Notes under the pieces: generated by a model | What the model saw: the letters and a program-made list of their open reading frames with translations, nothing else | Told to the model about the DNA's origin: nothing | Databases searched by the model: none | Part shown: positions 8,355-23,313 of the stretch, one piece after another | Position numbering within the stretch: the stretch's first letter is position 1 | Layout of the letters: each line of letters starts with the position of its first letter | Made by a program: the position numbers and the translations under genes | Source: Candidatus Omnitrophota bacterium | GTDB taxonomy: Bacteria; Omnitrophota; Gorgyraeia; Tantalellales; Tantalellaceae | Assembly (NCBI GenBank): GCA_032126595.1 | Contig: JAQBAV010000002.1 | Span: forward strand, 1 to 25,256 | DNA length: 25,256 nt | Direction: 5' to 3'

Positions 8355-8361
8355 TAGTTTT

Positions 8362-8444
8362 AAGAAAGGTGTATGTACCTCGGGACTCAGACAGTCCTCA
8401 GCCTTCGGCCTGCGGAACTCGTCCGAGACACATACACCTTTCTT
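8362..8444 (+). repeat. Structured intergenic element A, copy 2
   Basis: Perfect 15-bp outer stem AAGAAAGGTGTATGT/ACATACACCTTTCTT. Core at 8386-8399 and 8410-8421. Inner hairpin GCC-TTC-GGC. Confidence 0.9.
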
Positions 8445-8471
8445 TTTTGTTGCCCTGAAACTCTTATCGTC

Positions 8472-8521
8472 GGGGAGGACGGTGCTGATAATTCGGAAGG
8501 AAAAGCTACAGCTTTTCCTTC
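8472..8521 (+). repeat. Module B, degenerate copy with a different hairpin
   Basis: GGGGAG...GATAATTCGGAA as in the other B copies, then a perfect 11-bp hairpin GAAGGAAAAGC-taca-GCTTTTCCTTC. Confidence 0.6.
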
Positions 8522-8556
8522 TTCTTGTTATGGGCTTGTGTTTATAAGATGCAGAT

Positions 8557-8667
8557 AAAGGTTGGTATCGTACTTCGTGCTCGAACAGTCCTCGCCCCGA
8601 CGGGCACCCCGTGAAACGGGGTCGCGGGGCTGCGGAAACTGCGCGCGAAACACACTATCAACCCTTT
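8557..8667 (+). repeat. Structured intergenic element A, copy 3
   Basis: Outer stem GGTTGGTA/TATCAACC with a G-U pair. Core CTCGAACAGTCCTC at 8580-8593 and CTGCGGAAACTG at 8630-8641. Inner insert CCGACGGGCACCCCGTGAAACGGGGTCGCG is identical to that in copy 1. Confidence 0.9.
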
Positions 8668-8690
8668 TCATTAACGAAACATTACGGTTG

Positions 8691-8771
8691 GGGGAGGTAT
8701 AGTGATAATTCGGAAACGAACCTCACATGTTAAGACACCGGGGTTCGTTTTTCCTGGAATGGTTGGGGAGT
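8691..8771 (+). repeat. Module B, copy 1
   Basis: GGGGAG..GATAATTCGGAAACGAACC[...]GGGGTTCGTTTTTCCTGGAATGGTTGGGGAGT, homologous to 19189-19268 and 23133-23213. Confidence 0.85.
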
Positions 8772-8785
8772 GTTTTCCTTTTTAT

Positions 8786-8844
8786 AGGGACGGTTCTAAA
8801 TTCAAAGCTACATCCGTCCCGAATTTGAACTTACACTTGTCCCT
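8786..8844. repeat. REP-like palindromic element between convergent transcription units
   Basis: AGGGAC...GTCCCT ends, with inner GTTC(T)AAATTC/GAATTTGAAC. An alternative 7-bp stem GGGACGG/CCGTCCC is also possible. Confidence 0.65.
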
Positions 8845-8853
8845 GAAGAGAGG

Positions 8854-9993
8854 CTAATAGATCTCGTATTTTAAGAGGCGGCATTCGATATCACCGGTAT
8901 AGAAGGGGATGCGTCTGGATGCCGTGAGGCCCACCTTTTTAGAAAGTTCCCGGCTGCCTGTAAAGATATAACCATCATACCCCGTACATTTCTTCTTGAA
9001 GAAGTCGCCGATATTTTTGTATGTGTCAGCTAATTTTTTAACCTCGCCCATGCGTTCGCCGTATTCGGGGTTAAGAAGTACAATTCCCTTGCCTTCGGGA
9101 ATATCTGTTTCAGTGAAATCGCATACCTTAAAATCTATTAAGTGGTCAACTCCGCATGTTTTTGCATTCTTAATCGAAGCCTGAACAGCGTCCTCACTTC
9201 TATCTGTTGCAATTATTTTATAGTCAGTTTTTTTTTGGGCTCTTGCTAAAGCTTCCTTTCTCAAAGTGTACCAGTAATCGCTATTAAAATCCTTAAAGTG
9301 TTTAAAGGCAAAGTTACTTCTTAATAAACCCGGGGCTTTGTCCAGTGCGATCAAAGCAGCTTCTATCGCTAGAGTTCCGCTACCGCACATCGGGTTTACA
9401 AAGTGACTCTTGCCGTTATAACCGGATGCTAATACAACTGCCGCGGCAAGTGTTTCCTGCATGGGGGCCTTTAGGGGGAGTTTTCTGTAGCCTCTATCGG
9501 CGAGCTTGACTCCGGAAGTATTAAGATATATCCAGGCCTTGTTGCCTCTCCAGTATAGGTTAATTACAATGTTTTTCCTATCGGGTCCGGCGTTAGGTCT
9601 CCTGCCGCACTTATCTGTCATACGGTCGCATATAGCGTCTTTCAGCTTCTGATTGGCGAACATGGAATTTGTTATAGTGGGATTTTTTACTTGTGAAACT
9701 ATCGAAATATATTCAGTTGGAGGAATGATGTCCTCCCATTCAATCTTAGAGGCCTCACGGTATAGTTCGTCGGGAGAGGAGCATCTAAATTCTCCAATAT
9801 TAAAGAGAACATTATATGCGGTCCTGAGCTCAAGGTTCAGCTTATAAGTGTCCAGGAATTTTCCGCTTATGACAACACCTGTATCGTGCGATGATTCTAT
9901 CTTATGGCCAAGGCCAGTGATTTCCTTTTCCAAAAAAGGAGAAATTCCCGTTGCGCACGTAATTAGTATTTTGCTTTTCTTAGTTAGACTCAT
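8854..9993 (-). CDS. THUMP-domain class I SAM-dependent rRNA methyltransferase (RlmL/YpsC-like, single module)
   Basis: THUMP region followed by 'LNTSG..L..RGYR...LKAPMQETLAAA...NPMCGSGTLAIEAAL' and 'LLNPEYGERMG'. Confidence 0.88.
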   Translation of the reverse strand: MSLTKKSKILITCATGISPFLEKEITGLGHKIESSHDTGVVISGKFLDTYKLNLELRTAYNVLFNIGEFRCSSPDELYREASKIEWEDIIPPTEYISIVSQVKNPTITNSMFANQKLKDAICDRMTDKCGRRPNAGPDRKNIVINLYWRGNKAWIYLNTSGVKLADRGYRKLPLKAPMQETLAAAVVLASGYNGKSHFVNPMCGSGTLAIEAALIALDKAPGLLRSNFAFKHFKDFNSDYWYTLRKEALARAQKKTDYKIIATDRSEDAVQASIKNAKTCGVDHLIDFKVCDFTETDIPEGKGIVLLNPEYGERMGEVKKLADTYKNIGDFFKKKCTGYDGYIFTGSRELSKKVGLTASRRIPFYTGDIECRLLKYEIY

Positions 9994-10003
9994 ATGTCCT
10001 TAG

Positions 10004-10032
10004 AGTATAGCGTAATTTGTTTATAATTTGAA
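10004..10032 (-). promoter_or_regulatory. Candidate sigma70 promoter for the THUMP methyltransferase
   Basis: On the minus strand, TTCAAA (10032-10027), a 17-bp spacer, then TATACT (10009-10004). The start codon follows about 10 nt later. Confidence 0.45.
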
Positions 10033-10044
10033 GAGATAAAAACA

Positions 10045-10131
10045 ATAGTGGCAGGCGAACTACTCCGTGCTCGGACAGTCCTCGGCCTTTGGCCTGCGGA
10101 ACTGCGCGCGGAGCACTCCGCCTGCCACTAT
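10045..10131 (+). repeat. Structured intergenic element A, copy 4
   Basis: Perfect 13-bp outer stem ATAGTGGCAGGCG/CGCCTGCCACTAT. Core CTCGGACAGTCCTC at 10070-10083 and CTGCGGAACTG at 10094-10104. Inner hairpin GGCC-TTT-GGCC. Confidence 0.9.
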
Positions 10132-10251
10132 AATAAACCTAGAGATAAAACTTAATAGCACCTTTCTTTTTTCTGATGCACCCAAAATTCTCATCAAAGG
10201 AGGATTTTTATTTCTTGCTTTTGCAAACAACTTACCTTATTCTTAAAGACA

Positions 10252-11592
10252 ATGATTAAAACTGACGACTTAACAAAAGGCTCTGTAGGGAGAGAACTTT
10301 TTAGGCTTACTCTTCCCATGATATTTGGTGTATTCGCTATTATGGCATTCAATGTCATAGATACGTATTTCGTGGCGAAGCTCGGCACAAAAGAGCTTGC
10401 CGCTATGGCTTTTACATTCCCCGTGGTTTTTGTTATTGGCGCCATAACTATGGGGCTTGGCGTAGCCGCCTCATCAGTAATCTCAAGAGCAATAGGGCGA
10501 AAAGATTTTCATCAGGTAAGAAGGCTTACTGTAGATGCTCTTTTACTTTCGGTAATTATTGTAGTGATCTTTATTTTTGCGGGACTGGCAACCATGAAAA
10601 CCATATTCACAAGTATGGGGGCCACTAGCGATATCTATTACTTTATCGAAAAGTATATGAGAGTTTGGTATATAGGTGTCGGCTTTTTAGTTATACCCAT
10701 GGTAGGCAACAATGCTATAAGGGCCTCAGGAGACATGGTAACGCCCGCAGTAATAATGACTGTTTCCGCTATTTTAAATACAATTCTCGACCCTTTACTT
10801 ATATTTGGCTTAGCGGGATTCCCGCGTATGGGGATAGAGGGGGCCGCACTTGCTACAGTTATAACACGCTCGGTATCTTTAATCGTATCTTTGTCTGTCC
10901 TCCACTTTAGTAAAAGGATGCTGGAATTTTTTATTCCTACAATTAAGGAACTTATTAAGTCGTGGGGAGAGTTTCTTTATGTCGGCATACCTTCAGCGAT
11001 TTCTAATGTACTTTTTCCGATTACGATAGGTGTGGTTACAAGGATGGTGGCTTTTTATGGACCGGAGGCGGTCGCGGGATTTGGAGCGGCTATGCGTTTT
11101 GAAGCATTTGCTCTAATTATATTAATGGCGCTCTCTACAGCAATAGTACCTTTTGTAGGGCAGAACTGGGGGGCAAAGAGATTTGATCGTGTGCACTTAG
11201 CCCAGAGAGAGGGGAACAGTTTTGCTTTATTGTGGGGAGCATTGTGTTTTATTGTTCTATATTTTTCAGCTAATCTTGTCGGCCGAATCTTTAGCGATGA
11301 TCCCGGGGTAATTAAAAATATAGCAGATTATTTAAGGATCATGCCTCTAGGGTATGGGTTCGGAGGCGTATGCATGCTTACAGTATCTATTTTTAACGCC
11401 ATAAATAAACCCATCAAAGGAATACTACTTAATGCGATAAGATTTTTTGTCTTGTATATACCGCTTGCATATTTAGGCTTTAAGATCATGGACATAAAAG
11501 GTATATATTTCGGGCTAGTATTAGGCAGTGTAATAGGCGGGGTTATTTCTATTGTTTGGATAAGGCATACTTGCAGAGCATGCGAGAAGTAG
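10252..11592 (+). CDS. MATE-family efflux transporter
   Basis: 446 aa with about 12 hydrophobic segments. Motifs 'LT.GSVGRELFRLTLPM', 'DTYFVAKLGT..LAA' and 'LDPLLIFG..G.P.MGIEGAALAT'. Confidence 0.93.
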   Translation: MIKTDDLTKGSVGRELFRLTLPMIFGVFAIMAFNVIDTYFVAKLGTKELAAMAFTFPVVFVIGAITMGLGVAASSVISRAIGRKDFHQVRRLTVDALLLSVIIVVIFIFAGLATMKTIFTSMGATSDIYYFIEKYMRVWYIGVGFLVIPMVGNNAIRASGDMVTPAVIMTVSAILNTILDPLLIFGLAGFPRMGIEGAALATVITRSVSLIVSLSVLHFSKRMLEFFIPTIKELIKSWGEFLYVGIPSAISNVLFPITIGVVTRMVAFYGPEAVAGFGAAMRFEAFALIILMALSTAIVPFVGQNWGAKRFDRVHLAQREGNSFALLWGALCFIVLYFSANLVGRIFSDDPGVIKNIADYLRIMPLGYGFGGVCMLTVSIFNAINKPIKGILLNAIRFFVLYIPLAYLGFKIMDIKGIYFGLVLGSVIGGVISIVWIRHTCRACEK

Positions 11593-11748
11593 GTTATCTA
11601 GTAGCGGGTTGTGGCTTTGCAACTCTTCTTGGGGTATAATAACCTAGAAAATGGTTAAACATGGAGGGAACATGGAAGACTATAAACTGACCATTGAAGA
11701 AGCCGAGGAGTATTTGTTTGGGAAGTAATAGGCAATACGGGGAGTTAT

Positions 11749-12057
11749 ATGAATAAGCTGATTATTACACTTCTAATTTTTACGTTCCTACCAACAGCAG
11801 TCTACGCATCCACTGGTTATTATACTAGGGATGAGAAGGGTGTGATGCACTATAAAATTCATGACGAAGATTCTAGTTATGAACCGTCAAAGGATGTGGC
11901 TGGTACCAAAGAGGCCAAGAAAACAGTATATGCTAACAGACTTGATATGAAGTATCATAAAGAAGGGTGTAGATATTCAAGACGCACCGCAAATAGGATG
12001 ACAGCAGAAGAGGCAATAGAACTGGGATATCAGCCCTGTCAGAAGTGCAGGCCGTAA
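11749..12057 (+). CDS. Exported hypothetical protein with C-terminal Ada-metal-binding-like Cys/His motif
   Basis: Signal peptide (..PTAVYA) and C-terminal 'KYHKEGC...EEAIELGYQPCQKCRP'. SD GGGGAG. Confidence 0.7.
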   Translation: MNKLIITLLIFTFLPTAVYASTGYYTRDEKGVMHYKIHDEDSSYEPSKDVAGTKEAKKTVYANRLDMKYHKEGCRYSRRTANRMTAEEAIELGYQPCQKCRP

Positions 12058-12072
12058 ATAAGAACAGGAGGG

Positions 12073-12462
12073 ATGATGGAGATTTCTATACTTTTAGCAA
12101 AGATATTAGGACCGATGTACATTGTTATAGCGATAGGCATACTATTGAACATGAAGAATTATCAGACCGTTATGGAAGACTTTTCTCAAGAGCCGGCTCT
12201 GATTTACCTTGGAGGCCTTGTAGCTTTTATTTTTGGCATCATAATAGTGCTTTTTCATAATATATGGATGATGAATGGCCGCGTAATCATCACTATTATC
12301 GGGTGGATGGCTCTTATTAAGGGGGTTTGGCTAATCGTTTTCCCGAGAAGCTTAGCGTCTTCAGTGAGATTATTCAATAAAACCGGATTTTTAGCGGTAA
12401 GCATGGTGATAGTTTTTATTCTTGGAGCACTTCTTACTATAATGGGATATTTTCTAGTTTGA
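12073..12462 (+). CDS. Hypothetical integral membrane protein (about 4 TM)
   Basis: SD AGGAGG and four hydrophobic stretches; 'LAKILGP..IVIAIG...FHNIW...IITIIGWMALIKG'. Confidence 0.8.
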   Translation: MMEISILLAKILGPMYIVIAIGILLNMKNYQTVMEDFSQEPALIYLGGLVAFIFGIIIVLFHNIWMMNGRVIITIIGWMALIKGVWLIVFPRSLASSVRLFNKTGFLAVSMVIVFILGALLTIMGYFLV

Positions 12463-12475
12463 TAGGAGGGGCAAT

Positions 12476-12664
12476 ATGGAGTTGGAAAATTTTATAATAC
12501 CTTTGGGTGTGGCAACGTATTCATGTCTGGTCATATCAGTTATCACAGGACTGCTTATTTTTAAATTTCACGTAAAATGGATAAGTATAAAAATGCATAT
12601 TCTTTTTGGAATTGCTACGCTTATTTTAGGAACTTTTCACGCAGGAATAGTAATATTTTTTTGA
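12476..12664 (+). CDS. Small 2-TM membrane protein with His residues (HILFG...TFHAG)
   Basis: SD GGAGG. 62 aa and hydrophobic, with His residues flanking the second helix. Confidence 0.7.
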   Translation: MELENFIIPLGVATYSCLVISVITGLLIFKFHVKWISIKMHILFGIATLILGTFHAGIVIFF

Positions 12665-12681
12665 TTGATAAGGAGAATAGC

Positions 12682-12855
12682 ATGGTTACTAAGATTGCAA
12701 TTGGTGCTGTGATAGGCGGAGCGATCGGCTTTGGGATGAACTATCTTTGTATGATGACAGGGGGAGCATGTCCATTAATGAAGTTTAAAATAGTCGCGAT
12801 TTTTGTATGGGCGCTCATAGGGGCCGCGATAGGCGCTGCTGTAGGCAACAGATAA
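12682..12855 (+). CDS. Small Gly-rich 2-TM membrane protein with a CxxxGGACP loop (DUF6132-like)
   Basis: ATG 12682 follows AAGGAG, in frame with ORF 12577..12855. Translation MVTKIAIGAVIGGAIGFGMNYLCMMTGGACPLMK...GAAIGA. Confidence 0.7.
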   Translation: MVTKIAIGAVIGGAIGFGMNYLCMMTGGACPLMKFKIVAIFVWALIGAAIGAAVGNR

Positions 12856-12884
12856 AGACCTAAATCTCTAAACAAGGGGGAAAC

Positions 12885-13166
12885 ATGAAGAAAATCAGCG
12901 TTAAAAAAATAGTTGCAGGCGTTGCTATGACAACTCTTGTAGCAGGGCTAGCGACAGGAGCATATGCCGGTGTTAGTAAGTCTTCTTGCGGCAAAGGTTC
13001 TTGCGGCAAGTCTTCCTGCGGTTCTAAGGGGGCTAAAATGGAACAGGCAGGAAAAGCGGGCGATGAGCATTGTAAGGAAATGCCAGGCAAAAGAAAACTT
13101 GGTGCAGGTAACGAAATTGGTTGCAAGGGCAAGAGTTCTTGTGGTAAAGGTTCCTGCGGCAGTTAA
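12885..13166 (+). CDS. sbtA: RiPP precursor (SbtA/'selenobiotic'-like, Cys-only) with Sec-type signal peptide and five SCG motifs
   Basis: Leader MKKISVKKIVAGVAMTTLVAGLATGAYA, then KSSCGKGSCGKSSCG...KSSCGKGSCGS. 7 Cys. Directly upstream of a radical SAM/SPASM gene. Family assignment is from recall, not a search. Confidence 0.72.
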   Translation: MKKISVKKIVAGVAMTTLVAGLATGAYAGVSKSSCGKGSCGKSSCGSKGAKMEQAGKAGDEHCKEMPGKRKLGAGNEIGCKGKSSCGKGSCGS

Positions 13167-13189
13167 TATCGCTGTTAAGTTAGAAGTTT

Positions 13190-13226
13190 AAGTAGCCCGT
13201 TTCATTAAAAAGCGGGCTACTTTCTT
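13190..13226 (+). terminator. Hairpin (terminator or stabiliser) between precursor and maturase genes
   Basis: AAGTAGCCCG ... CGGGCTACTT, a 10-bp stem followed by TCTTTATT. Confidence 0.7.
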
Positions 13227-13234
13227 TATTAGCC

Positions 13235-14827
13235 ATGAATAAAAAAACCATAATCCGTATAAACAAGATCTTTAGTAGATGCAGGTCTTTATTGGGAGAC
13301 AAGGCCTGGGCCGAGATTATTAAGAATCTCGGTATAAACTTTGAACTTGAAGAGTTTCCGTCGTATATTGCCCAGCTTGCCAGGGAAGAAAAGGTCCCTA
13401 AATATATTTCTGAACTTGCCGCCTTCGAATGGGTTAAATATGCTATGTCTTTTTCTCCTCTAGGGGCAGGGAAAGATATAGAAAGAATAAAGATTAATCC
13501 CACCCTGGAGATATATGAACTTTCTTATGATTTTTCAGAGCTTTTTACATCGGAGGGTCCTTGGGGTGATATAAAAATAAAAAAGAATAAAGAGACAGTT
13601 CTTTTATGGCGCTCTCCCAAGACCGGAAAAGTAAACATTAAAAAAGCAGCCGATGATGATATGATCTCCATGAAAATAGCTATTGAAAATATAGCTACTA
13701 AGGATATCGTCAAAGAAACAGGATTATCTGTAAGCGATATAGATAATATGCTTCTTGCTAAAAGTGATGAAGGCATGATCTTGATGCCAATGTCCAAAAT
13801 AAAAAGAGATCCTTCGTTTTGTGATGATATTGGAAGCATTCCAGACGAGCAGTTAAGGGCTGACATTTTCACAATACAATGGCATATCACTAATGTATGC
13901 GACTTACATTGCAAACATTGCTATGACAGGGATAAGCGTTCGCCTCTTACTTTAAATCAGGGTAAGAAGGTCTTGAATGATTTGGATGAATTTTGTAAGA
14001 AAAAAAATGTAAGAGGGCATGTTTGTTTTTCAGGAGGAAACCCGTTTCTTTCACCTCACTTTTTTTCTTTGTATAAGGAGACCGCTGAAAGAGGGTACTC
14101 AACTTCCATTTTAGGAAACCCCACAACAAAAAAAGAGCTCCAACAGCTAATAGACATGCAAAAACCGGAATATTTTCAGGTTAGCCTTGAAGGATTGGAG
14201 GAACACAATGATCTAATAAGGGGGAAGGGCTTTTTTAAGAAGGTGATTGCGTTTCTTGATCTTTTAAAAGAGATGAATATATCCTCAGCTGTCATGCTTA
14301 CTCTTACAAAAGATAATATTAATGAGGTTTTTCTCCTTGCTGATGAGCTAAGTAAGCACTCAGACTATTTTACATTTAATCGATTATCTAACGTGGGGGA
14401 AGGAAAAAACCTTCTTCTTCCCAAGAAAAAAGAATACACCCAGTTTCTTAAAAAATATGTTAAAGCGTATAAAACTAACCCAATATTGGGTTTTAAGGAC
14501 AATTTAATAAACATTGTTCTTGAGAAAAAAGGCGTTAAGCCTTTTGGTGGATGTACGGGCTATGGCTGCGGGGCTGCTTTCAGCTTTGCAACAATACTTC
14601 CAGATGGGGAGGTTCATGCTTGCCGTAAATTTCCATCGATTATTGGCAATATTCTTGAGAGCAGCCTGTTAGATATATACAATTCCAAAAAAGCCGGTAA
14701 ATACAGATTAGGTTCAGAAGCTTGCAATAAGTGCTCATTAAAGCCTTACTGTGGAGGTTGCCTTGCCGCAACGAGCGGCGCAGGTATGGATATTTTCAAG
14801 GATGAGGATCCATATTGCTTCAAATAG
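13235..14827 (+). CDS. sbtM: Radical SAM/SPASM peptide maturase (SbtM-like) with N-terminal putative precursor-recognition domain
   Basis: CxxxCxxC in 'WHITNVCDLHCKHCY', 'FSGGNP', and SPASM cysteines 'GGCTGYGCGAA...VHACRK...CNKC...YCGGC...DPYCF'. About 200-aa N-terminal extension 'ELAAFEW...INPTLEIYELSYD' resembles DUF2063/HvfC-type domains. Confidence 0.8.
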   Translation: MNKKTIIRINKIFSRCRSLLGDKAWAEIIKNLGINFELEEFPSYIAQLAREEKVPKYISELAAFEWVKYAMSFSPLGAGKDIERIKINPTLEIYELSYDFSELFTSEGPWGDIKIKKNKETVLLWRSPKTGKVNIKKAADDDMISMKIAIENIATKDIVKETGLSVSDIDNMLLAKSDEGMILMPMSKIKRDPSFCDDIGSIPDEQLRADIFTIQWHITNVCDLHCKHCYDRDKRSPLTLNQGKKVLNDLDEFCKKKNVRGHVCFSGGNPFLSPHFFSLYKETAERGYSTSILGNPTTKKELQQLIDMQKPEYFQVSLEGLEEHNDLIRGKGFFKKVIAFLDLLKEMNISSAVMLTLTKDNINEVFLLADELSKHSDYFTFNRLSNVGEGKNLLLPKKKEYTQFLKKYVKAYKTNPILGFKDNLINIVLEKKGVKPFGGCTGYGCGAAFSFATILPDGEVHACRKFPSIIGNILESSLLDIYNSKKAGKYRLGSEACNKCSLKPYCGGCLAATSGAGMDIFKDEDPYCFK

Positions 14828-14847
14828 CCCCCGATACCCATATTCTA

Positions 14848-14875
14848 TTGACAAAACTTGGGCGAGTATTATAAT
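14848..14875 (+). promoter_or_regulatory. Consensus sigma70 promoter upstream of the EF-G paralogue
   Basis: TTGACA (14848-14853), a 16-bp spacer, then TATAAT (14870-14875). Confidence 0.8.
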
Positions 14876-14984
14876 AAAAATATTATATATAAAAGTGTTT
14901 CGTATTATTATCACTTCTACACGCGAGTCATGCATATCCCGTAGGTGAGGAAATTTCAAATCTAAACTTAAGGAGGTACTCAAA

Positions 14985-17033
14985 GTGGCTGTTTCAACAA
15001 AAGATATTCGCAATGTTGTCTTATTAGGACATGCCGGTGAAGGCAAAACAACTCTGGCAGAAAACCTGCTTGCAAAGGGTGGTACGATCCCTAAGCCGGG
15101 AAGCGTTAGTGATGGAACGACCGTTTCCGATTATAATGACGATGAAAAGACCCGCAAGAATTCCATAAGCCTCTCAGCTATGTCTTATGAGAAAGATGGA
15201 ATTAAGGTTAATATATTCGACACACCCGGATTCTTAGATTATACGGGAGATGTAGCATCAGGTGTAGCAGCAGCCGATGCCCAGATTATGATGGTTGATG
15301 CCGTGGGAGGAACAAGAGTAGGCACTTCAAAGTTCTGGAAACTTGCCAGGGCAAAAGGCTTACCGGGACTTATTGTAGTTAATAAAATGGATAAAGATAG
15401 CGCTAATTTTTCTAAGACGCTTGCAAACATACAGACAGCGTTAGGTAAAACCTGTGTAGCGCTGCGTTATCCTAATGGCACAGGGTCATCTTTTTCAGGC
15501 ACTGCAAACCTTTTGACCGGGGAAGGTATTGACGGCCTCCAGGGCGACGACAAGGCTAAGGCGGAAACTCTTTCCAACGCGATGGTGGAAGGTGTTGCCG
15601 AGTCGGATGATGTACTATTGGAAAAATACCTCGAAACCGGCGAATTGTCCCAAGATGAATTAAAGACAGCCTTCAGAAAAGGTGTAGTTTCGGGGAAGAT
15701 TGTGCCCGTTGTTCCAGCCTCCGCTGAAAAAGGTATTGGCCTTGACGAGATAATGGATATTATTAAGAACTATATGCCCTCTCCGGAGGATGCCATTTTT
15801 GAAACTGAAGCTGAGGGTGAAGCGGAAGCTCAAAAAATTGAAGTTAAAACAGATGGACCTTTCGCGGCTCAGGTAGTTAAAACCATATCAGACCCATTTA
15901 CAGGGCAGATATCAATATTGCGTGTCGTTAGAGGCAAGGCCGTTTCTAACGCGTCAGTTAAGAATGCAAATAAAGATGTTTCTGAAAAAATAGGGCAGCT
16001 TTTCTTTCTTCAGGGCAAAAAGCAGATACAGACGGATTCAGCTGTAGCGGGGGATGTAGTTGCTGTTGCCAAACTAAAAAACACAAATACAAACGATACT
16101 CTTTGTGACGACAAAAACCCCGTTAAATTAAAGAAGACAAGTTTCCCGCAGCCAGCTGTCAGTCTTTCTATTAAGCCAAAATCAAGGTCTGACGAAGACA
16201 AGATATCGGACGTTCTTGTAAAGCTTTCAGCTGAAGATCCATCATTTTTAAGCCTTAGAGATAAACAGACCCACGAACTTGTTATCTCCGGCATGGGCGA
16301 CCTCCACTTAAAGACCATGATACACAGAATGAAAGATCGTTATGGCGTAGACGTTGAGATCGGCACTCCAAAAGTTGCCTACAAGGAAACTATTACGGGT
16401 AAGGGAGAGTCAAAATATAGACACAAAAAGCAGTCAGGGGGTTCGGGGCAATTTGCAGAAGTGTGGATGAGGGTTGAACCATTGCCGCGTGGTGAAGGCT
16501 TTCTGTTTGTTGATGAAGTTGTAGGCGGAACTATACCAAAACAGTTTGTGGGAAGTTGCGAAAAGGGTGTTTTAGGCGCTTTGGCGGAAGGTTTCCTGGC
16601 AGGGTTTCCGGCTGTAGACGTGAAGGTAATTGTTTATGACGGCAAAACGCATCCGGTTGATTCCAAGGATATCGCTTTTCAGATAGCAGCTGCTCATGCC
16701 TTCCGCGAGTCATGCGAAAAAGCTAAGCCGGCTCTTTTAGAACCCGTAATGAACGTTGAATTTATGGTGCCCGAAGAGAATATGGGTGATGTTACAGGGT
16801 CTTTGAGTACAAGACGAGGAAGAGTTCAGGGAATGGATTCTGAAGGTGGCATGCAGGTTGTCAAAGCTCAGATACCTCTTGAAGAGATGTATAAATATGC
16901 TAATGAGCTCAAATCGCTTACCGGCGGCAGGGCTACTTACACTATGAGCTTTTCTCATTATGATCCTGTTCCGCCTAACGTTGCACAGAAGGTCATAGCG
17001 GAAAACAAGAAAGAGCATAAAGCAGAAGAATAA
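14985..17033 (+). CDS. fusA: Elongation factor G paralogue (EF-G2/FusA2 type)
   Basis: GTG start after AAGGAGG; 682 aa. G1 GHAGEGKT, G3 DTPG, G4 NKMD, domain IV 'HKKQSGGSGQFA' and 'HPVDSKDIAF'. Not located in the str operon. Confidence 0.92.
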   Translation: MAVSTKDIRNVVLLGHAGEGKTTLAENLLAKGGTIPKPGSVSDGTTVSDYNDDEKTRKNSISLSAMSYEKDGIKVNIFDTPGFLDYTGDVASGVAAADAQIMMVDAVGGTRVGTSKFWKLARAKGLPGLIVVNKMDKDSANFSKTLANIQTALGKTCVALRYPNGTGSSFSGTANLLTGEGIDGLQGDDKAKAETLSNAMVEGVAESDDVLLEKYLETGELSQDELKTAFRKGVVSGKIVPVVPASAEKGIGLDEIMDIIKNYMPSPEDAIFETEAEGEAEAQKIEVKTDGPFAAQVVKTISDPFTGQISILRVVRGKAVSNASVKNANKDVSEKIGQLFFLQGKKQIQTDSAVAGDVVAVAKLKNTNTNDTLCDDKNPVKLKKTSFPQPAVSLSIKPKSRSDEDKISDVLVKLSAEDPSFLSLRDKQTHELVISGMGDLHLKTMIHRMKDRYGVDVEIGTPKVAYKETITGKGESKYRHKKQSGGSGQFAEVWMRVEPLPRGEGFLFVDEVVGGTIPKQFVGSCEKGVLGALAEGFLAGFPAVDVKVIVYDGKTHPVDSKDIAFQIAAAHAFRESCEKAKPALLEPVMNVEFMVPEENMGDVTGSLSTRRGRVQGMDSEGGMQVVKAQIPLEEMYKYANELKSLTGGRATYTMSFSHYDPVPPNVAQKVIAENKKEHKAEE

Positions 17034-17037
17034 GTTC

Positions 17038-17098
17038 AGCTATAAGTTATAAGCCGTAAGCTGTAAAAAATATAGCTTAAAGCTTAAAACTTATAGCT
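17038..17098. repeat. Hairpin built from four heptamers per arm
   Basis: AGCTATA AGTTATA AGCCGTA AGCTGTA / TATAGCT TAAAGCT TAAAACT TATAGCT. Confidence 0.85.
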
Positions 17099-17125
17099 AC
17101 GAAAAGATTAAAAAAAAGGGGCAGT

Positions 17126-17878
17126 ATGTCCGGTCATTCAAAATGGTCTAGTATTAAACATAAAAAAGGCGCTGCGGATGCTAAGCGCGGAAAGCTTTTT
17201 ACTAAGCTTATTAGAGAAATTACTGTTTCTGCCAGAGAAGGCGGAGGAGACGCTGACTCTAATCCTCGCTTAAGGCTTGCTATACAAAAGGCAAAAGAAG
17301 CTAATATGCCTGCAGATAATATTGATCGCGGAGTTAAAAAAGGTACGGGTGAGCTCGAAGGTGTAAATTACGAGAATGTATCTTTTGAAGGATATGGGGT
17401 AGGTGGAGTAGCAGTTATTGTTGAGGGTCTTACAGATAACAAAAATCGCACTACAAGCGATGTAAGAAGCATTTTCTCAAAACGCGGCGGGAATATGGCA
17501 GGAGCAGGTTCAGTAGCTTTCCAGTTCGAAAGAAAAGGTGTTTTCTTGGTTAAAAAAGAAGATGCCAAGGAAGACGAACTTATGACTGTAGCCGTTGATG
17601 CCGGGGCGGAAGACTTCAATACCGACGAAGATTATTACGAAATAGTTTGCGCTCCGCAGGACTTTGACAAGGTGCGCAGCAAACTAACTAAAAAAGGCGT
17701 AAAATTAGAATCTGGCGAACTTAGCATGGAGCCAAAGAATACAGTTAAGGTAGATGACATTGAAACCGCTACGAAGATAATGAGCCTGATAGACGAACTT
17801 GAGGATAATGATGATGTTCAGAATGTCTATGCTAATTTTGATATTCCGGATGATATTCTTAAGAAGATAGAAGAATAA
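17126..17878 (+). CDS. yebC: YebC/PmpR-family protein
   Basis: 'MSGHSKWSSIKHKKGAADAKRGKLFTK...NPRLRLAI.KAK..NMP', 'EGYG.GGV', 'DDVQNVYAN'. Confidence 0.97.
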   Translation: MSGHSKWSSIKHKKGAADAKRGKLFTKLIREITVSAREGGGDADSNPRLRLAIQKAKEANMPADNIDRGVKKGTGELEGVNYENVSFEGYGVGGVAVIVEGLTDNKNRTTSDVRSIFSKRGGNMAGAGSVAFQFERKGVFLVKKEDAKEDELMTVAVDAGAEDFNTDEDYYEIVCAPQDFDKVRSKLTKKGVKLESGELSMEPKNTVKVDDIETATKIMSLIDELEDNDDVQNVYANFDIPDDILKKIEE

Positions 17879-17883
17879 TAAAT

Positions 17884-17941
17884 GGTTCATGGTTCAGCGT
17901 TCATAGTTCATCGACGAACCACAAACCACGAACTACGAACT
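17884..17941. repeat. Hairpin built from four heptamers per arm (second sequence type)
   Basis: GGTTCAT GGTTCAG CGTTCAT AGTTCAT cg ACGAACC ACAAACC ACGAACT ACGAACT. Confidence 0.85.
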
Positions 17942-17946
17942 AAATT

Positions 17947-18429
17947 ATGAAAATACTCGGAGTTGACCCAGGATTAATACGTACCGGATATGGTGTAATA
18001 GAATCTGATGGTCCGGAAAAGATGAAACTTATTGAAGCGGGGATCGTAAAAACTTCTTCAGAAGAATCTATATCGGAAAGACTAGTCACTATTTATAAGA
18101 ACTTAACCGATGTTATTGCCGAGCATAAGCCCGAAGTTCTTGTTCTTGAAAAACTTTATTCGCACTATAAACATCCAATCACATCAATACTTATGGGCCA
18201 TGCAAGAGGCGTTATATGTTTGGCTTCAGGCGTTAATAATGTGCGGTTAGTCAGCTATCCTGCCACACGCATTAAAAAAGCAGTTACAGGTAACGGCGCC
18301 GCAGCTAAAACTCAGGTACAAAGAATGGTAAAGATGCTTCTCTCGCTTGATAAGCTTCCAGAACCCCACGATGTAAGCGATGCACTTGCCATGGCTATAA
18401 GTTATGTTTACATGGAAGGAGTGAAATGA
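17947..18429 (+). CDS. ruvC: Crossover junction endodeoxyribonuclease RuvC
   Basis: 'ILGVDPG...TGYGVI', 'LEKLY', 'KKAVTGNG.A.K.QV', 'DVSDALA'. Confidence 0.96.
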   Translation: MKILGVDPGLIRTGYGVIESDGPEKMKLIEAGIVKTSSEESISERLVTIYKNLTDVIAEHKPEVLVLEKLYSHYKHPITSILMGHARGVICLASGVNNVRLVSYPATRIKKAVTGNGAAAKTQVQRMVKMLLSLDKLPEPHDVSDALAMAISYVYMEGVK

Positions 18430-19049
18430 TATCTAGAATTAAAGGCAAGATAATAAAGTCTAAGATTGATGCCCTAAATATAGAGAATAATGGGCTTTGT
18501 TACGAAGTGTTTGTTCCGGCGGCTGTAATGAAAGCCCTGGAGAAAGAGAGTAGGTTAGACGGACAAGTTGAACTTATCACTTATCATTACTATCAAATGG
18601 AGCCTTCCAGAGGCGTACCTGTCTTAATAGGGTTTCAAAATGAGGTTGAAAAAGAGTTTTTTGAAAAGTTTATTTCTGTTTCAGGGGTAGGCCCAAAGGC
18701 GGCATGCAGAGCCTTGGCCGAACCATTTTCTTTGATAGCCGGCGCCATAGATTCCGGAAATGTTTCTTTTTTGAAGAGTTTGCCGGGAATAGGAGAGACA
18801 AGAGCCCGTCAGATCGTCGCAAAACTTCAAGGCAAGGTCGGAAAATACGGACTCATACGCGATGAATTGATGGGAGACGTTAAGGTAGATGATGATATAA
18901 GAGGTGAAGCACTAGAGGTTCTCCTGCAGCTTCAATATAAAAGAGGGGAAGCTGAGGAGATGCTTAATAAGGCGCTCGAGAGAGTATCCAATATAAAAAC
19001 AAGCGAAGAGCTCCTAAATGAAGTTTATAAAGAGAGGATACAGAAATAG
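18426..19049 (+). CDS. ruvA: Holliday junction branch migration protein RuvA
   Basis: 'MISRIKG', HhH motifs 'ISVSGVGPK' and 'LPGIGE..A..IV..L.GK', C-terminal 'EALEVLLQLQY'. ATGA overlap with ruvC. Confidence 0.95.
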   Translation: MISRIKGKIIKSKIDALNIENNGLCYEVFVPAAVMKALEKESRLDGQVELITYHYYQMEPSRGVPVLIGFQNEVEKEFFEKFISVSGVGPKAACRALAEPFSLIAGAIDSGNVSFLKSLPGIGETRARQIVAKLQGKVGKYGLIRDELMGDVKVDDDIRGEALEVLLQLQYKRGEAEEMLNKALERVSNIKTSEELLNEVYKERIQK

Positions 19050-19079
19050 GTGATGAGTTGTATGGTAAGAAATAAAAAG

Positions 19080-19169
19080 AATGACAGGTTATATATTCGG
19101 CGCTCAAACAGTCCTCGCCCCGGTTTTATCGGGGCTGCGGAACTCGCGCCGAACACATTCCCTGTCATT
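19080..19169 (+). repeat. Structured intergenic element A, copy 5
   Basis: Outer stem AATGACAGG/CCTGTCATT. Core CTCAAACAGTCCTC at 19103-19116 and CTGCGGAACTCG at 19135-19146. Inner hairpin GCCCCGG-TTTTA-TCGGGGC. Confidence 0.9.
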
Positions 19170-19188
19170 TTGCACAATTAGCATCTTA

Positions 19189-19268
19189 GGGGAGTGAGCT
19201 GTTATAATTCGGAAACGAACCATATTATCAAGACAGCGGGGTTCGTCTTCCTGGGATGGTTGGGGAGT
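19189..19268 (+). repeat. Module B, copy 2 (contains TGtTATAAT at 19200-19208)
   Basis: GGGGAG...TGTTATAATTCGGAAACGAACC...GGTTCGTCTTCCTGGGATGGTTGGGGAGT. Confidence 0.85.
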
Positions 19269-19282
19269 ATAAATAAAAATAC

Positions 19283-19350
19283 TGGTGACCCGGTGACTTG
19301 GCAACTGGTGACAACTTTTGACATGTAACTTGTGACATATGACTTTTGAC
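19283..19350 (+). repeat. TGAC-periodic 8-mer/7-mer direct-repeat array (C1)
   Basis: TGGTGACC CGGTGACT TGGCAAC TGGTGAC AAC TTTTGAC ATGTAAC TTGTGAC ATATGAC TTTTGAC. Confidence 0.85.
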
Positions 19351-19366
19351 TAATTAGGTGATAAAT

Positions 19367-20410
19367 ATGGAAAATAATAGAGAAAAATTTGTTGATGACG
19401 CTGTTAGTCCGGTAAGGAGTGCCGACACTGATGACGACGTGGTATTGAATTTATCATTAAGGCCAAAAGAGCTCAAACATTTTGTAGGGCAAAAAGACGT
19501 GGTTGACTCACTATCAATAGCTCTTAAGGCATCTGTCAAAAGAGATGAGCCCATGGAGCATTTCCTTCTTTCCGGGCCTCCTGGACTTGGAAAAACGTCA
19601 CTGGCACATATCATAGCCAATGAAAGAGGCACCAAGATAACATCCACAAGCGGTCCCGCTATCGATAGAGCAGGGGATCTTATAGGCATCCTTACAAACC
19701 TTTCAGATGGCGATATTCTTTTTATTGATGAGATACATCGCCTTTCAAAGACCGTTGAGGAATTTATTTATCCTGCCATGGAAAACTATCAGATAGATTT
19801 TCTTGTTGATAAAGGGCCTTATGCTAAAACAATAAAGTTCAATCTTAAAAGATTTACTTTGATAGGAGCTACAACAAGGGCGGGGCTCTTAAGTGCACCC
19901 TTAAGGGACAGGTTCGGTATGTTTTTACATCTGGACTTTTATTCAGTGGAAGACCTTGAAGAGATAATTAAGCGATCAGCCCAGCTTTTAGGAATACCCA
20001 TGGATGCCGAAGGCGCCAGCGAGATAGCGCGCCGCTCAAGAGGCACTCCAAGGATAGCAAACCGTCTTTTAAGGAGAGTGAGGGACTGGGTGGAAGTTAA
20101 GTCTAATGGAAGGATCACCAAAGACGCTACCTTTGATGCTTTGGCAAGCCATGGTATAGATGGGGCAGGATTAGATAAGATGGACAGGAAGCTCCTCGAT
20201 GTCATACAAACTTCGTATAAGGGCGGCCCCGTGGGCATAGACGCAATAGCCGCATCATTGAATGAGGAGACGGATACAATCGAAGATGTTGTTGAGCCAT
20301 ATCTATTAAAGATGGGTTTTTTAAGAAGGACTTCGAGAGGAAGAGAGTTGACCGAAAAAGCCGTTGAGTATCTTGGAAAGAGCCCGGGGAAACAGGGGAA
20401 GATGTTTTAG
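19367..20410 (+). CDS. ruvB: Holliday junction branch migration ATPase RuvB
   Basis: ATG 19367 after AGGTG. 'LRPK.L..FVGQ', Walker A GPPGLGKT, 'LFIDEIHRL', 'GATTRAG.L..PLRDRFG', 'RGTPRIANRLLRRVRD'. Confidence 0.98.
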   Translation: MENNREKFVDDAVSPVRSADTDDDVVLNLSLRPKELKHFVGQKDVVDSLSIALKASVKRDEPMEHFLLSGPPGLGKTSLAHIIANERGTKITSTSGPAIDRAGDLIGILTNLSDGDILFIDEIHRLSKTVEEFIYPAMENYQIDFLVDKGPYAKTIKFNLKRFTLIGATTRAGLLSAPLRDRFGMFLHLDFYSVEDLEEIIKRSAQLLGIPMDAEGASEIARRSRGTPRIANRLLRRVRDWVEVKSNGRITKDATFDALASHGIDGAGLDKMDRKLLDVIQTSYKGGPVGIDAIAASLNEETDTIEDVVEPYLLKMGFLRRTSRGRELTEKAVEYLGKSPGKQGKMF

Positions 20411-20427
20411 GGGTATTTATTTTTATT

Positions 20428-20527
20428 TCATCCTCGCTAAAAACATGCGTGGATGACGATTTTGAATTTTCCTGGTGACCCGGTGACCCGGTGACTTGGT
20501 GACCCCTTTTGACATACGACTTTTAAC
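20428..20527 (+). repeat. Module D hairpin plus TGAC array (C2)
   Basis: TCATCC-T-CGC-taaaaacat-GCG-T-GGATGA, then GGTGACCC x2, GGTGACTT, GGTGACC, TTTTGAC ATACGAC TTTTAAC. Homologous to 23279-23367. Confidence 0.8.
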
Positions 20528-20531
20528 TATT

Positions 20532-20750
20532 ATGTTTCAGATTATTGGTAAGTATTTAGTTATATTTGGACTAGTTCTAGTTGCAATCGGGGGCATTTTT
20601 TATTTCGCCGGACGTCTTCCATTGTTTGGAAAGCTACCGGGAGATATTTTTATAAAGAGGGACAATTTTACTTTTTACTTTCCTCTTACGACATGCATTC
20701 TTATAAGCATAATTTTATCAATTCTTCTTTATCTTTTCTCAAAGAGATAA
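20532..20750 (+). CDS. DUF2905-family small membrane protein
   Basis: 'IGKYLVIFGLVL...G.LPGDI.IKR.NFTFYFPLTTCILISIILS'; usual neighbour of ruvB. Confidence 0.9.
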   Translation: MFQIIGKYLVIFGLVLVAIGGIFYFAGRLPLFGKLPGDIFIKRDNFTFYFPLTTCILISIILSILLYLFSKR

Positions 20751-21934
20751 CAAAACGTCCGGTAGGAATAGCGGCGGTAGTTTTTGTTATACTTTCTGTT
20801 CTTCTATTCTTTTTCTTTTTTCCGGTTATTTCTAAAAAAACCGAGGAACCCGTACTTTTAACCCGAGTAAGGATAGCTCACGATGAAAGCAACGTAAGAA
20901 TTGTCTTGAATGATAAGTTTAGAGTAGAAGACATAAAAACCGGTGAAACATTATTGAGCGATATGTTGCCCGGAGGAGTGGTTAATGTTTCAAAAACCTC
21001 TGGTGGGATAGGCCTAAACGGTGAAACCTTTACCTCCGAAGGGGTTACTTTTATATTTGCGAGTACCGGAGGGGTAATAGTCAACGATATCCCCTATAGG
21101 GGAACGGTAGATATCGTTAAAAATAAGAAGGACCTCAATGTAATAAACATTGTAGACATTGAAGACTATATTAAAGGCGTAGTGCCGTGTGAAGTAAATC
21201 CTTTATGGCCATTTGCTGCACTTAAGGCCCAGGCTATTGCTTCAAGAAGTTTTGCGGCATATCAAACAATAGTAAGAAGAAACAAAGATTTTGATCTTAC
21301 TGCAGATACTTATTCTCAGGTCTATAAAGGAAGATTAAGAGAAACCGCGAGAACCAATAAAGCCGTTAATGATACCCTTGGCAAAGTTCTTGCCTTTAAG
21401 GGCGAAATACTTCCAGGATATTTTCATTCATGTTGCGGCGGACACACTGAAGATGCTGCCGAACTGTGGGAACATAATTTAGAGCCCCTTAAAGGAGTTA
21501 AGTGTAAATGGTGTAGAGTATCACCACACTTTAAGTGGAGGGCTAGAATAAATAAAAAGGAGTTAGCCGAAAAATTAAATAAAGAAGGATATGATTTTAG
21601 CCGTGTAACCGGACTTGCCGAAGGCGCAAGAGATGCTTCGGGACGATTAGAATATGTTACCGTTGAAGATGGTCGGAAAAAAGAAGAGATCGACATTCTC
21701 AAGTTCAGAGCAATAGTTGGCAGGAGCACACTTAAAAGTGCAAATTTTCATATCGGCGGATTTTTTAAACCCTTTTCAATTAAGGGATTTGGTTGGGGGC
21801 ATGGAGTAGGGATGTGTCAGTGGGGAGCATTCGGCCTTGCCCTAAGGCGGCGAAGTGCAGAGAAAATACTTGAGTATTACTATCCCGGGGCTGAGATAGT
21901 TGATATAAAGAAAGTGCTACCTGGTAGTTTGTAG
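20693..21934 (+). CDS. SpoIID/LytB-domain protein (peptidoglycan lytic transglycosylase-like); true start uncertain (possibly ATA at 20747)
   Basis: 'YRG...IN..DIEDYIKGVVPCE..P.WP..ALKAQAIASRS', 'QVYKG', 'FHSCCGGHTE', 'GWGHGVGMCQWGA', 'ILEYYYPG'. Confidence 0.9.
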   Translation: MHSYKHNFINSSLSFLKEITKRPVGIAAVVFVILSVLLFFFFFPVISKKTEEPVLLTRVRIAHDESNVRIVLNDKFRVEDIKTGETLLSDMLPGGVVNVSKTSGGIGLNGETFTSEGVTFIFASTGGVIVNDIPYRGTVDIVKNKKDLNVINIVDIEDYIKGVVPCEVNPLWPFAALKAQAIASRSFAAYQTIVRRNKDFDLTADTYSQVYKGRLRETARTNKAVNDTLGKVLAFKGEILPGYFHSCCGGHTEDAAELWEHNLEPLKGVKCKWCRVSPHFKWRARINKKELAEKLNKEGYDFSRVTGLAEGARDASGRLEYVTVEDGRKKEEIDILKFRAIVGRSTLKSANFHIGGFFKPFSIKGFGWGHGVGMCQWGAFGLALRRRSAEKILEYYYPGAEIVDIKKVLPGSL

Positions 21935-21954
21935 TTAGTAGTTAGGAGTTTGTA
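21924..21954 (+). repeat. Short one-armed heptamer array overlapping the spoIID stop codon
   Basis: GTAGTTT GTAGTTA GTAGTTA GGAGTTT GTA. Confidence 0.6.
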
Positions 21955-21980
21955 TCCGGTAATTTGATGAGAAAGTAAAT

Positions 21981-22991
21981 ATGAAATTAAAAGATTTTTA
22001 TTATGAGCTTCCGGAAAAGTTAATTGCGCAGGAGCCTTTAACGGAGAGGGATAGTGCGCGACTCATGATTCTGGATAGAGGAAGCAGAGAAATTTCTGAG
22101 AGAGTTTTTAGAGATGTTTATGATTACATAAATGAAGGCGATTGCCTGGTTCTTAATAACACCCAGGTTATACCCGCCAGGCTCTATGGGAAAAGAGATA
22201 CCGGCGGTAAGGTTGAGATATTTTTGCTGGATTCACAGGGAGAAGACCCAAGAGCCCTGATACGACCTTCTAAAAAGATCAAAGAGGGCGAGAAGATAGA
22301 GCTGGAGAACGGTGTAATTGCGACAGTGCTCGGCGAAGCTGACGTGGGAAGGTTCGTGAAGTTTGATTCTTCCATTGAGAAGGTTTTAGAAGGAGGCCAC
22401 GTTCCTCTTCCGCCATATATAAGGCGCGAAGATACGGCAAGGGATATTGAGGATTATCAGACAGTGTATTCGTTAAGAGCAGGCGCTACAGCATCTCCTA
22501 CGGCAGGCTTACATTTTACTAGAGACCTTCTGGATGCTTTTAGAAGAAAAGGCGTGATAATTGAACAGGTTACGCTGCACACAAGCTATGGCACTTTTGC
22601 TCCGGTAAAAGAAGAAAACATTAGAGACCATAAAATGCATTCAGAGTTCTTTGAGATGAACGAGAAAACTGCCCGTGTGATAAATAAGGTTAAAACGTCA
22701 GGTCATAAAGTTTTTGCTGTAGGCACTACATCAACAAGAGTTCTTGAGACATCGGCAGATAAAGACGGGAAGATAAGGCCCTTAAAAGGAAAAACGGACC
22801 TATTTATTACGCCAGGATATTCGTTTAAAGTGGTGGACGGATTAATAACAAATTTTCATTTGCCGGAATCTACCTTGCTTATGCTGGTAAGCGCGCTTGC
22901 AGGTAAGGATTTTATTTTCGAAGCATACAAAAAAGCCATTAACAGTAAGTTCAGGTTTTTTTCGTATGGGGATGCGATGTTGATAATTTAG
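21981..22991 (+). CDS. queA: S-adenosylmethionine:tRNA ribosyltransferase-isomerase QueA
   Basis: 'DFYYELPEKLIAQEP...RDSARLM', 'VLNNTQVIPARL', 'PLPPYI', 'DYQTVY', 'ASPTAGLHFT', 'AVGTTSTRVLET', 'TNFHLPESTLL', 'RFFSYGDAM'. Confidence 0.98.
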   Translation: MKLKDFYYELPEKLIAQEPLTERDSARLMILDRGSREISERVFRDVYDYINEGDCLVLNNTQVIPARLYGKRDTGGKVEIFLLDSQGEDPRALIRPSKKIKEGEKIELENGVIATVLGEADVGRFVKFDSSIEKVLEGGHVPLPPYIRREDTARDIEDYQTVYSLRAGATASPTAGLHFTRDLLDAFRRKGVIIEQVTLHTSYGTFAPVKEENIRDHKMHSEFFEMNEKTARVINKVKTSGHKVFAVGTTSTRVLETSADKDGKIRPLKGKTDLFITPGYSFKVVDGLITNFHLPESTLLMLVSALAGKDFIFEAYKKAINSKFRFFSYGDAMLII

Positions 22992-23020
22992 GGTAAGATT
23001 GATATTTGACAGTAAATCAT

Positions 23021-23113
23021 ATGACAGCTCATGTATTCGGCGCTCAAACAGTCCTCGAATGGCAAACATTTTTGCCATCCTGCGGAACTCGCGGCGAACA
23101 CATTCCCTGTCAT
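23021..23113 (+). repeat. Structured intergenic element A, copy 6
   Basis: Outer stem ATGACAG/CTGTCAT. Core at 23043-23056 and 23080-23091. Inner hairpin ATGGCAAA-catt-TTTGCCAT. Confidence 0.9.
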
Positions 23114-23132
23114 TTTGTACAACTACCATCTT

Positions 23133-23213
23133 AGGGGAGTGAGATGTTATAATTCGGAAACGAACCATATTATCAAGACAACGGGGTTCGTCTTCCTGGG
23201 ATGGTTGGAGAGT
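23133..23213 (+). repeat. Module B, copy 3 (contains TGtTATAAT at 23145-23153)
   Basis: Near-identical to 19189-19268. Confidence 0.85.
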
Positions 23214-23236
23214 ATAAATAAATGCTGGTGACTTGA

Positions 23237-23313
23237 TGACAGTAAGATGTATGACAGCTCATGTATTCGGCGCTCAAATAAAAACATGCGGGGATAACGA
23301 TTTTGATTTTTTC
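23237..23313 (+). repeat. Truncated element A left arm fused to module D
   Basis: 23237-23278 repeats 23007-23048 (TGACAGTA......ATGACAGCTCATGTATTCGGCGCTCAAA) and then continues as TAAAAACATGCG.GGAT.ACGATTTTGA, as at 20438. Confidence 0.75.

Follow-up and report, generated by a model that had tools for sequence, protein, structure and literature searches.

Dispersed hairpin repeats with exchanged tips in a Candidatus Omnitrophota genome

How does one hairpin come to be cleanly replaced by another inside two otherwise near-identical copies of a repeat? The question is raised by a 25,256-nt stretch of DNA (the window; contig C2, GenBank JAQBAV010000002.1) from a Candidatus Omnitrophota metagenome-assembled genome (MAG), in which two hairpin modules, here called A and B, recur in the order A-linker-B. 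An earlier note, made from the letters of this DNA, had described A and B as travelling together in a nonautonomous mobile unit whose inner hairpins are exchanged at fixed junctions, implying a site-specific or templated process. Our favored reading, toward which we lean with modest confidence as a joint claim, is that A is a mosaic intergenic repeat with tips that are exchanged by homology-driven exchange and nesting.

The MAG comprises 1.13 Mb in 191 contigs, is 76% complete, and owes its assignment to Candidatus Omnitrophota to relatives of its RuvB. Members of this phylum are uncultured, ultra-small bacteria with compact genomes of 1.5 to 2 Mb. Repeats were read from the sequence, by repeat detection, and then by searches with two covariance models built in this analysis, R1 for module A and R2 for module B.

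Exchange of tip hairpins among copies

Module A is one long imperfect hairpin of 90 to 119 nt that is conserved at its center rather than at its ends. Its outer stems, about 20 bp in two segments, vary in sequence among copies while their pairing is kept. The core is an asymmetric internal loop, with GCTCRRACAGTCCTC on the 5' side and CTGCGGAACTCGC on the 3' side; it can also be written as GCUCRRACAG(U) and AACU(G)CGC, and it reduces to GCUCRRACA and AACU(G)CGC in more distant genomes. Beyond the core is a tip, of which the MAG has four types: long (L; 35 nt, n = 11), short (S; 16 to 18 nt, n = 6), tiny (T; 9 to 11 nt, n = 2), and A/T-rich (W; about 22 nt, n = 2). Pairing was assessed on 44 copies drawn from the MAG and 13 other genomes: 89.7% of cells pair, versus 65% in shuffles, and 29 of 31 pairs vary on both sides; the covariation score is 0.527, versus no more than 0.107 for slid controls. 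Module B is a second hairpin, which consists of a variable stem P1 with G.U pairs, an internal loop that bears the invariant AUAAUUCGGAA, and a P2/P3 of ACGAACC/GGUUCGU with a GG bulge.

The window contains six copies of A and four of B, all on the + strand, and each B lies 5 to 14 nt downstream of an A. Two of the resulting composites, one inserted between ruvA and ruvB (19076 to 19272) and the other behind queA (23016 to 23217), are 94% identical apart from the tip hairpin. The former joins an A with an S tip (19076 to 19174; R1, 99 bits) to a B (19180 to 19272; R2, 105.2 bits), and the latter joins an A with a W tip (23016 to 23119; R1, 91.2 bits) to a B (23125 to 23217; R2, 103.5 bits). 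Sequence comparison places the 17-nt S tip hairpin CCCCGGTTTTATCGGGG (19118 to 19134) exactly where the other copy has the 22-nt W tip hairpin AATGGCAAACATTTTTGCCATC (23058 to 23079), and the sequences beside the swapped tip agree without gaps at 29/32 positions to its left and 136/145 to its right. The clean replacement that the earlier note had reported between these composites is therefore exact.

A comparison of flanks with inner hairpins across all copies, which the note had proposed, reveals that their histories are uncoupled. In the MAG, flank cluster 1 bears tips L, L, L, S, and W, while flank cluster 2 bears W, L, S, L, and T. Similarity of flanks does not predict similarity of tips (Mantel r = -0.02): unrelated tips are found in 8 of the 11 pairs with at least 88% identical flanks, and ten pairs with less than 70% flank identity have tips that are at least 95% identical. 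The same holds in a second genus (genome G001), where one dominant flank type comes with any of three tips (T, 41 nt, or 67 nt) and where 23/39 pairs with near-identical flanks have unrelated tips. Tip exchange among copies is real, and module shuffling is clear in two genera.

Inner hairpins also occur free-standing in both genomes, a point that the earlier note had suggested checking. The S tip of the copy at 19076, together with two flanking bases on each side (GCCCCGGTTTTATCGGGGCT, 19117 to 19136, 20 nt), recurs unchanged as a free-standing hairpin on contig C5 (12012 to 12031), and similar hairpins are present on contigs C85, C63, and C25. In G001, three A copies carry the 67-nt tip, which is a member of a different repeat family, known from at least 15 other copies; its junction with A is a duplicated GTCCTCG, making the three copies chimeras. 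The donor family of this tip (loci L150 to L159) is abundant and has the form ..GGCCGAATCCGGGAGAATTCGGC ACTTCCTCGGACATTGCGTCCTCGGTCGC.., with a GTCCTCGG block in common with A. Tip types T and W recur in other genera as well; the W tip at 23059 to 23078 is closer to a copy in another genus (locus L017; one base apart) than to the second W copy of the MAG itself (five bases apart).

Several structural likenesses were also considered. Searched against Rfam 15, the whole window had no match at the gathering threshold, with hammerhead, twister, and riboswitch families included, and in E-value mode the two repeat regions gave chance-level matches only (E values of 1.5 and 4.4). A hammerhead in B was rejected: despite its GAAAC-stem-GUC, B lacks conservation of the CUGAUGA box and has no match in Rfam. 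K-turn, loop-E, and sigma-54 readings of the A core or the W tip were set aside too, as no consistent match was seen by eye. No tRNA or tmRNA origin was found for the repeats.

Copies, linkage, and insertion

All four A-linker-B units of the earlier note are present, within a few bases of where it had placed them. Their A matches score 69.9 to 99 bits with R1 (E values of 1e-17 to 3e-26), and the three intact B copies in the window score 83 to 105 bits with R2. Besides the two composites described above, one unit joins an A with a T tip (GCCTTCGGC; 8358 to 8449; 69.9 bits), beginning 4 nt past a methyltransferase stop, to a degenerate B (8464 to 8545; 18.5 bits, E value of 0.01). As the note had observed for B at 8472, this copy retains GGGGAG..GATAATTCGGAA and has a different hairpin, with GGAAAAGCTACAGCTTTTCC occupying the place of the expected ACGAACC..GGTTCGT. 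The remaining unit consists of an A with an L tip (8553 to 8671; 96.8 bits) and a B (8681 to 8775; 83.2 bits).

Three further features were not in the earlier note. An A with an L tip and no B (7605 to 7718; R1, 83.6 bits) begins 6 nt past the stop of an ABC-F gene, and an A with a T tip and no B (10043 to 10134; R1, 66.9 bits) alone among the window copies does not follow a co-oriented gene, lying in the divergent spacer between an rlmL-like gene (-) and a MatE gene (+). The third is a truncated 5' half of A (23237 to 23278; repeat family D6), also on the + strand, which ends inside the core at GCGCTCAAA and is joined to another short module, C. It is the second copy of a 42-nt direct repeat, 90% identical to 23007 to 23048, and the break inside the conserved core, between GCGCTCAAA and TAAAAACATGCG, is a recombination scar. 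Close by, GGGGATGCGATGTTGATAATT at the 3' end of queA (22968 to 22992) has an R2 match (12.7 bits, E value of 0.37) to the 5' half of B, perhaps by chance or perhaps because a piece of B overlaps the queA stop.

In the MAG as a whole, we counted 21 copies of A and 12 of B (11 by R2 plus the degenerate one). Every one of the 12 B copies is 5 to 14 nt downstream of an A, while 9/21 A copies are without a B, some of them at contig ends. Elsewhere in the family, A turns up in 12 of 24 genera, a single genome having as many as 23 copies, and it is sporadic in three further families of the class. Module B, on the other hand, was not found in any of 40 related genomes, including the 13 that carry A. 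Because B is always behind A here and was not found in these 40 relatives, B is a late, lineage-specific addition to an old element, and A and B do not generally travel together. The earlier claim that they do so holds from the side of B and fails from the side of A, 12 of whose 21 copies carry a B.

Arrangements in the MAG include A-B, A-A-B, and A-B-D, where D is a further short module, and tandem arrays occur in relatives. We propose that one A subfamily acquired the genus-specific hairpin B in this lineage and that the A-linker-B subfamily would then have spread as a unit of about 195 nt, often with the promoter-like module D after it. As many as 20 or more A copies, plus B, C, D, and the G001 family, occupy what little intergenic space there is and interrupt operons, ruvA-ruvB among them. 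Contigs C51, C58, C73, and C6 of the MAG terminate inside A or B copies, so the repeats fragment the assembly. R1 and R2 would let annotators mask or label A and B in Omnitrophota MAGs.

Identity among the five or six copies of cluster 1 is 89 to 97% over the whole composite, beginning at the outer-stem base and running across the linker to where B ends, and their upstream flanks are unrelated. Evidence from relatives bears on how the copies arrived at their sites. No A was found near ruvB at any of 75 related genome loci, nor near ruvA at any of 41 metagenome loci. The gene order at ruvA-ruvB is kept in the nearest relatives, with a spacer of about 30 to 95 nt, and the median spacer is about 40 nt (54 and 18 loci) versus 308 nt here. 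Likewise, five genomes that carry A have none on the contigs of their queA and ABC-F orthologues. Since relatives lack A at the ruvA-ruvB and queA sites, the evidence indicates that the copies are lineage-specific insertions, as read from these sequence comparisons. In this respect, the nonautonomous unit of the earlier note survives as a discrete, dispersed repeat with closely similar copies and empty sites in relatives. A copies would land in gene orientation right behind stop codons and would turn over between genera.

As to what might have moved them, the Y1_Tnp family (PF01797) has no match in the 76%-complete MAG; it is found in 21 of 25 genomes searched, irrespective of A, and none of its matches adjoins a match to A. 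A RAYT or Y1 transposase was provisionally set aside as the mobilizer, Y1 HUH genes being common in the class with no association with A. Nothing obvious as an autonomous parent was seen on maps of open reading frames (ORFs) beside the low-copy A of two other families (genomes G083 and G170), the ORFs not having been scanned against Pfam. In the first of these genomes, locus L244 (contig C1, 2560 to 2672) contains an A-like copy within a 370-aa minus-strand open frame; either this is an in-gene insertion or the ORF is spurious.

Placement, strand, and rival explanations

The gene upstream of A is co-oriented for 17/18 copies here and 19/21 in relatives, and A is often 0 to 60 nt from its stop. 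The 3' flank is 51% T, with TTT after the stem in 29/44 copies. This placement and T-run give A the look of a terminator or 3'-end hairpin and favor the sense strand. Of the features of an intrinsic terminator, position and orientation fit; the stems are 35 to 45 bp and the loops are large, and a simple terminator scan made no call at 18950 to 19420.

Folding points to the other strand. The bottom strand of A folds better in 40/45 and 16/20 copies (56/65) with RNA parameters and in 56/64 with DNA parameters, although the copies are related and these counts overstate their independence. The advantage is present in the outer stems alone (35 versus 7) and in the core and inner part alone (37 versus 6), and it arises because mismatches in the sense outer stems are mostly A.C (50) and less often G.U (13). 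B has the opposite preference, its sense strand being more stable by about 5 kcal/mol. In the MAG, at least 90% of the coding sequence of each contig is on one strand, and GC skew on the coding strand is about +0.17. Gene strand, skew, and element strand are thus confounded, and a replication-strand rule, such as applies to single-strand transposons and attC sites, is inseparable from a transcription rule.

In every tip type, both here and in G001, the joints are clean and fall at the same place, after GTCCTC(G) and before (C)TGCGG; the same flank bears three or four tip types in two genera; and the T and W tips persist across genera. All this would suit a dedicated site-specific or templated process that swaps tips at fixed junctions in the manner of a cassette, as the earlier note had supposed, and an enzyme of this kind that recognizes the core would be a new mobility mechanism. 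However, the junctions fall in blocks that are identical in every copy, so gene conversion or template switching would give the same clean joints, and no recombinase or reverse transcriptase is linked to the copies. Other details also speak for ordinary processes. The S and L tips have a common basal stem, GCCCCG/CGGGGC, and the L tip looks like an S tip whose loop has taken in another CCCCG..CGGGG hairpin; the 67-nt tip of G001 is a chimera with another repeat; and the core variants adjoining the tip, ACAATCCTC and GGAAACT, occur with L tips only and on different flanks, which, with small numbers, hints weakly at variable tract ends. We thus consider a dedicated process improbable and prefer homology-driven exchange and nesting: A copies would trade tips with one another and with further hairpin repeats, probably by gene conversion or template switching at the invariant 12- to 15-nt blocks that flank the tip, and some tips would have come about by the nesting of another hairpin repeat. 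If the shuffling is indeed ordinary recombination, these repeats offer a natural system for the study of gene conversion among dispersed repeats and a caution against taking covariation as proof of an RNA gene.

This caution bears on another explanation, in which A or A plus B is a selected structured RNA, namely, a protein-binding element of 3' untranslated or intercistronic regions that terminates, processes, or stabilizes transcripts and tolerates a variable domain at its tip. Strong covariation, an asymmetric conserved internal loop of the sort typical of protein-binding RNA, the position right after stops in gene orientation with its T-run (29/44), and the better folding of B in the sense strand, with G.U pairs there, are all as this explanation would have them. 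Covariation in DNA palindromes may, however, also come from template-switch correction, and A copies are not at orthologous sites, their sense outer stems have A.C over G.U mismatches and fold less well than the bottom strand, and their tandem arrays and truncated copies resemble repeat debris. An RNA family is a doubtful explanation. The same folding data are instead what would be expected if A were a folded single-stranded DNA site with an active bottom strand, recognized by a strand-specific recombinase or HUH enzyme in analogy to attC or REP/RAYT, in which the loop would serve as the recognition feature and the tip as a "variable terminal structure." Outer stems and core alike fold better on that strand with either parameter set, orientation is fixed relative to genes and GC skew, tip size spans a 3-nt loop to a branched 67-nt structure, and potential enzymes of the Y1 HUH type abound in the class. 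Nevertheless, A has neither R''/R' boxes (RYYYAAC/GTTRRRY) nor a GTAG-type tetranucleotide, the hairpin bases are its least conserved part, the flanking genes are syntenic housekeeping genes rather than cassettes, and Y1_Tnp neither tracks A nor is adjacent to its copies; such a site seems unlikely. A bolder version, in which the A loop is the docking site of a putative strand-specific enzyme on the folded bottom strand that both spreads A behind genes and swaps its tip as a cassette, strikes us as very unlikely. If it were true, A would be a programmable scaffold with an exchangeable head, and a mobility or diversification system without a described counterpart.

A number of points weigh against the mosaic repeat that we favor. 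Target-site duplications, for which the earlier note had advised a search, were not consistent at the five cluster-1 copies, where there is A/T-rich low-complexity similarity only. No transposase gene is linked to A, no conserved termini were found, and Y1_Tnp genes are present in relatives with and without A, so that mobility would be deduced solely from empty sites in other genera. No empty allele in the same species was found, the best metagenomic relatives of ruvA being just 73 to 74% identical. Blocks of 12 to 15 nt are short for RecA-type exchange, and the argument for the mechanism is one of parsimony. The strand data conflict, position and T-run indicating the sense strand and folding the bottom strand. 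Finally, a core that is kept across genera and families, along with T and W tips shared between genera, could mean a selected function. A might act as a terminator or processing hairpin at 3' ends, if transcribed, or as a folded single strand recognized by an enzyme. On balance, the repeat is probably selfish.

Known repeats, modules C and D, and the genomic setting

Among described systems, the REP group is like module A in lifestyle but not in anatomy. REPs are palindromes of 20 to 40 nt with a conserved terminal tetranucleotide, REPINs are inverted pairs of one REP separated by a spacer, and REP, BIME, and REPIN elements are mobilized by RAYT (Y1 HUH) transposases (PMC3116915, PMC3337134). 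As in these elements, A is high copy, extragenic, and mosaic (21 A and 12 B in 1.13 Mb); it occurs singly, in tandem, and in mosaics with other short modules; it is noncoding and nonautonomous; and it has subfamilies that recently spread within the genome. A cognate RAYT gene is typically flanked by its own REPs, whereas no RAYT gene is linked to A. Other differences are that its two conserved blocks (GCTCRRACAGTCCTC and CTGCGGAACTCGC) are not complementary to one another, the hairpin base is variable, the unit is longer, at 90 to 119 nt, and there is no inverted doublet. In effect, A inverts the usual logic of bacterial mobile repeats, with a conserved center and free ends.

BOX elements of Streptococcus pneumoniae have the order boxA-boxB(n)-boxC and vary by boxB copy number. 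A resembles them in its ordered modules (A, B, and often D), stable fold, varying module content, and intergenic position near genes, but its sequence is unrelated, its host belongs to another phylum, and here it is the tip hairpin that is replaced inside a conserved scaffold. An attC site has R''/R' core sites (RYYYAAC ... GTTRRRY) at the base of its hairpin, within a cassette array served by the IntI integrase. A shares with attC an imperfect hairpin directly behind a co-oriented ORF, conservation of structure over sequence, an unpaired center, a variable terminal structure, and a bottom strand that folds better. In contrast, there are no R/L boxes at the base of A, its neighbors (ruvCAB, queA, EF-G, etc.) are in the order of relatives and form no cassette array, and no integrase was noted, no search aimed at IntI having been made. 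ERIC- and Correia-type miniature inverted-repeat transposable elements have terminal inverted repeats matching those of an autonomous insertion sequence, and target-site duplications. Like A, these are imperfect palindromes of about 100 to 150 nt in transcribed intergenic regions or operons that may carry terminator, processing, or promoter activity; the outer stems of A, however, are nonhomologous between flank clusters (46 to 70% identity), and the five cluster-1 copies have no consistent flanking direct repeat. We found no paper describing an Omnitrophota A/B hairpin repeat. We conclude that A is a member of a Candidatus Omnitrophota family of dispersed fold-back intergenic repeats, which would be an undescribed variant of the REP/BIME type, neither new machinery nor a member of any named family.

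Two other short modules accompany A and B. Module C, TAAAAACATGCGKGGATRACG(ATTTTGA), is at 20438 to 20465 and 23279 to 23306 and also on contig C5 at about 12155, and it is always followed by module D. Module D is made of runs of a GGTGACY heptad, then TTTTGACAT.TGACTT.TGAC with TTGACA boxes (19283 to 19356, 20474 to 20533, and 23314 to 23428), and is directly upstream of start codons (ruvB and the gene at 23458). A-B-D forms one cassette in 4/5 cluster-1 copies, and this cassette may be a portable terminator-plus-promoter spacer. A promoter scan gave weak 9-of-12 matches only, on the minus strand of B, which we do not take as evidence.

The genes of the window are ordinary chromosomal genes, nearly all on the + strand, and include an efflux pump, ABC-F, methyltransferases, MatE, a radical-SAM cluster, EF-G, yebC-ruvC-ruvA-ruvB, SpoIID, and queA. 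Behind the EF-G gene, at 17038 to 17098, there is an inverted repeat that is unrelated to A and B, with 28-nt arms composed of heptamer units of the AGCTATA type.

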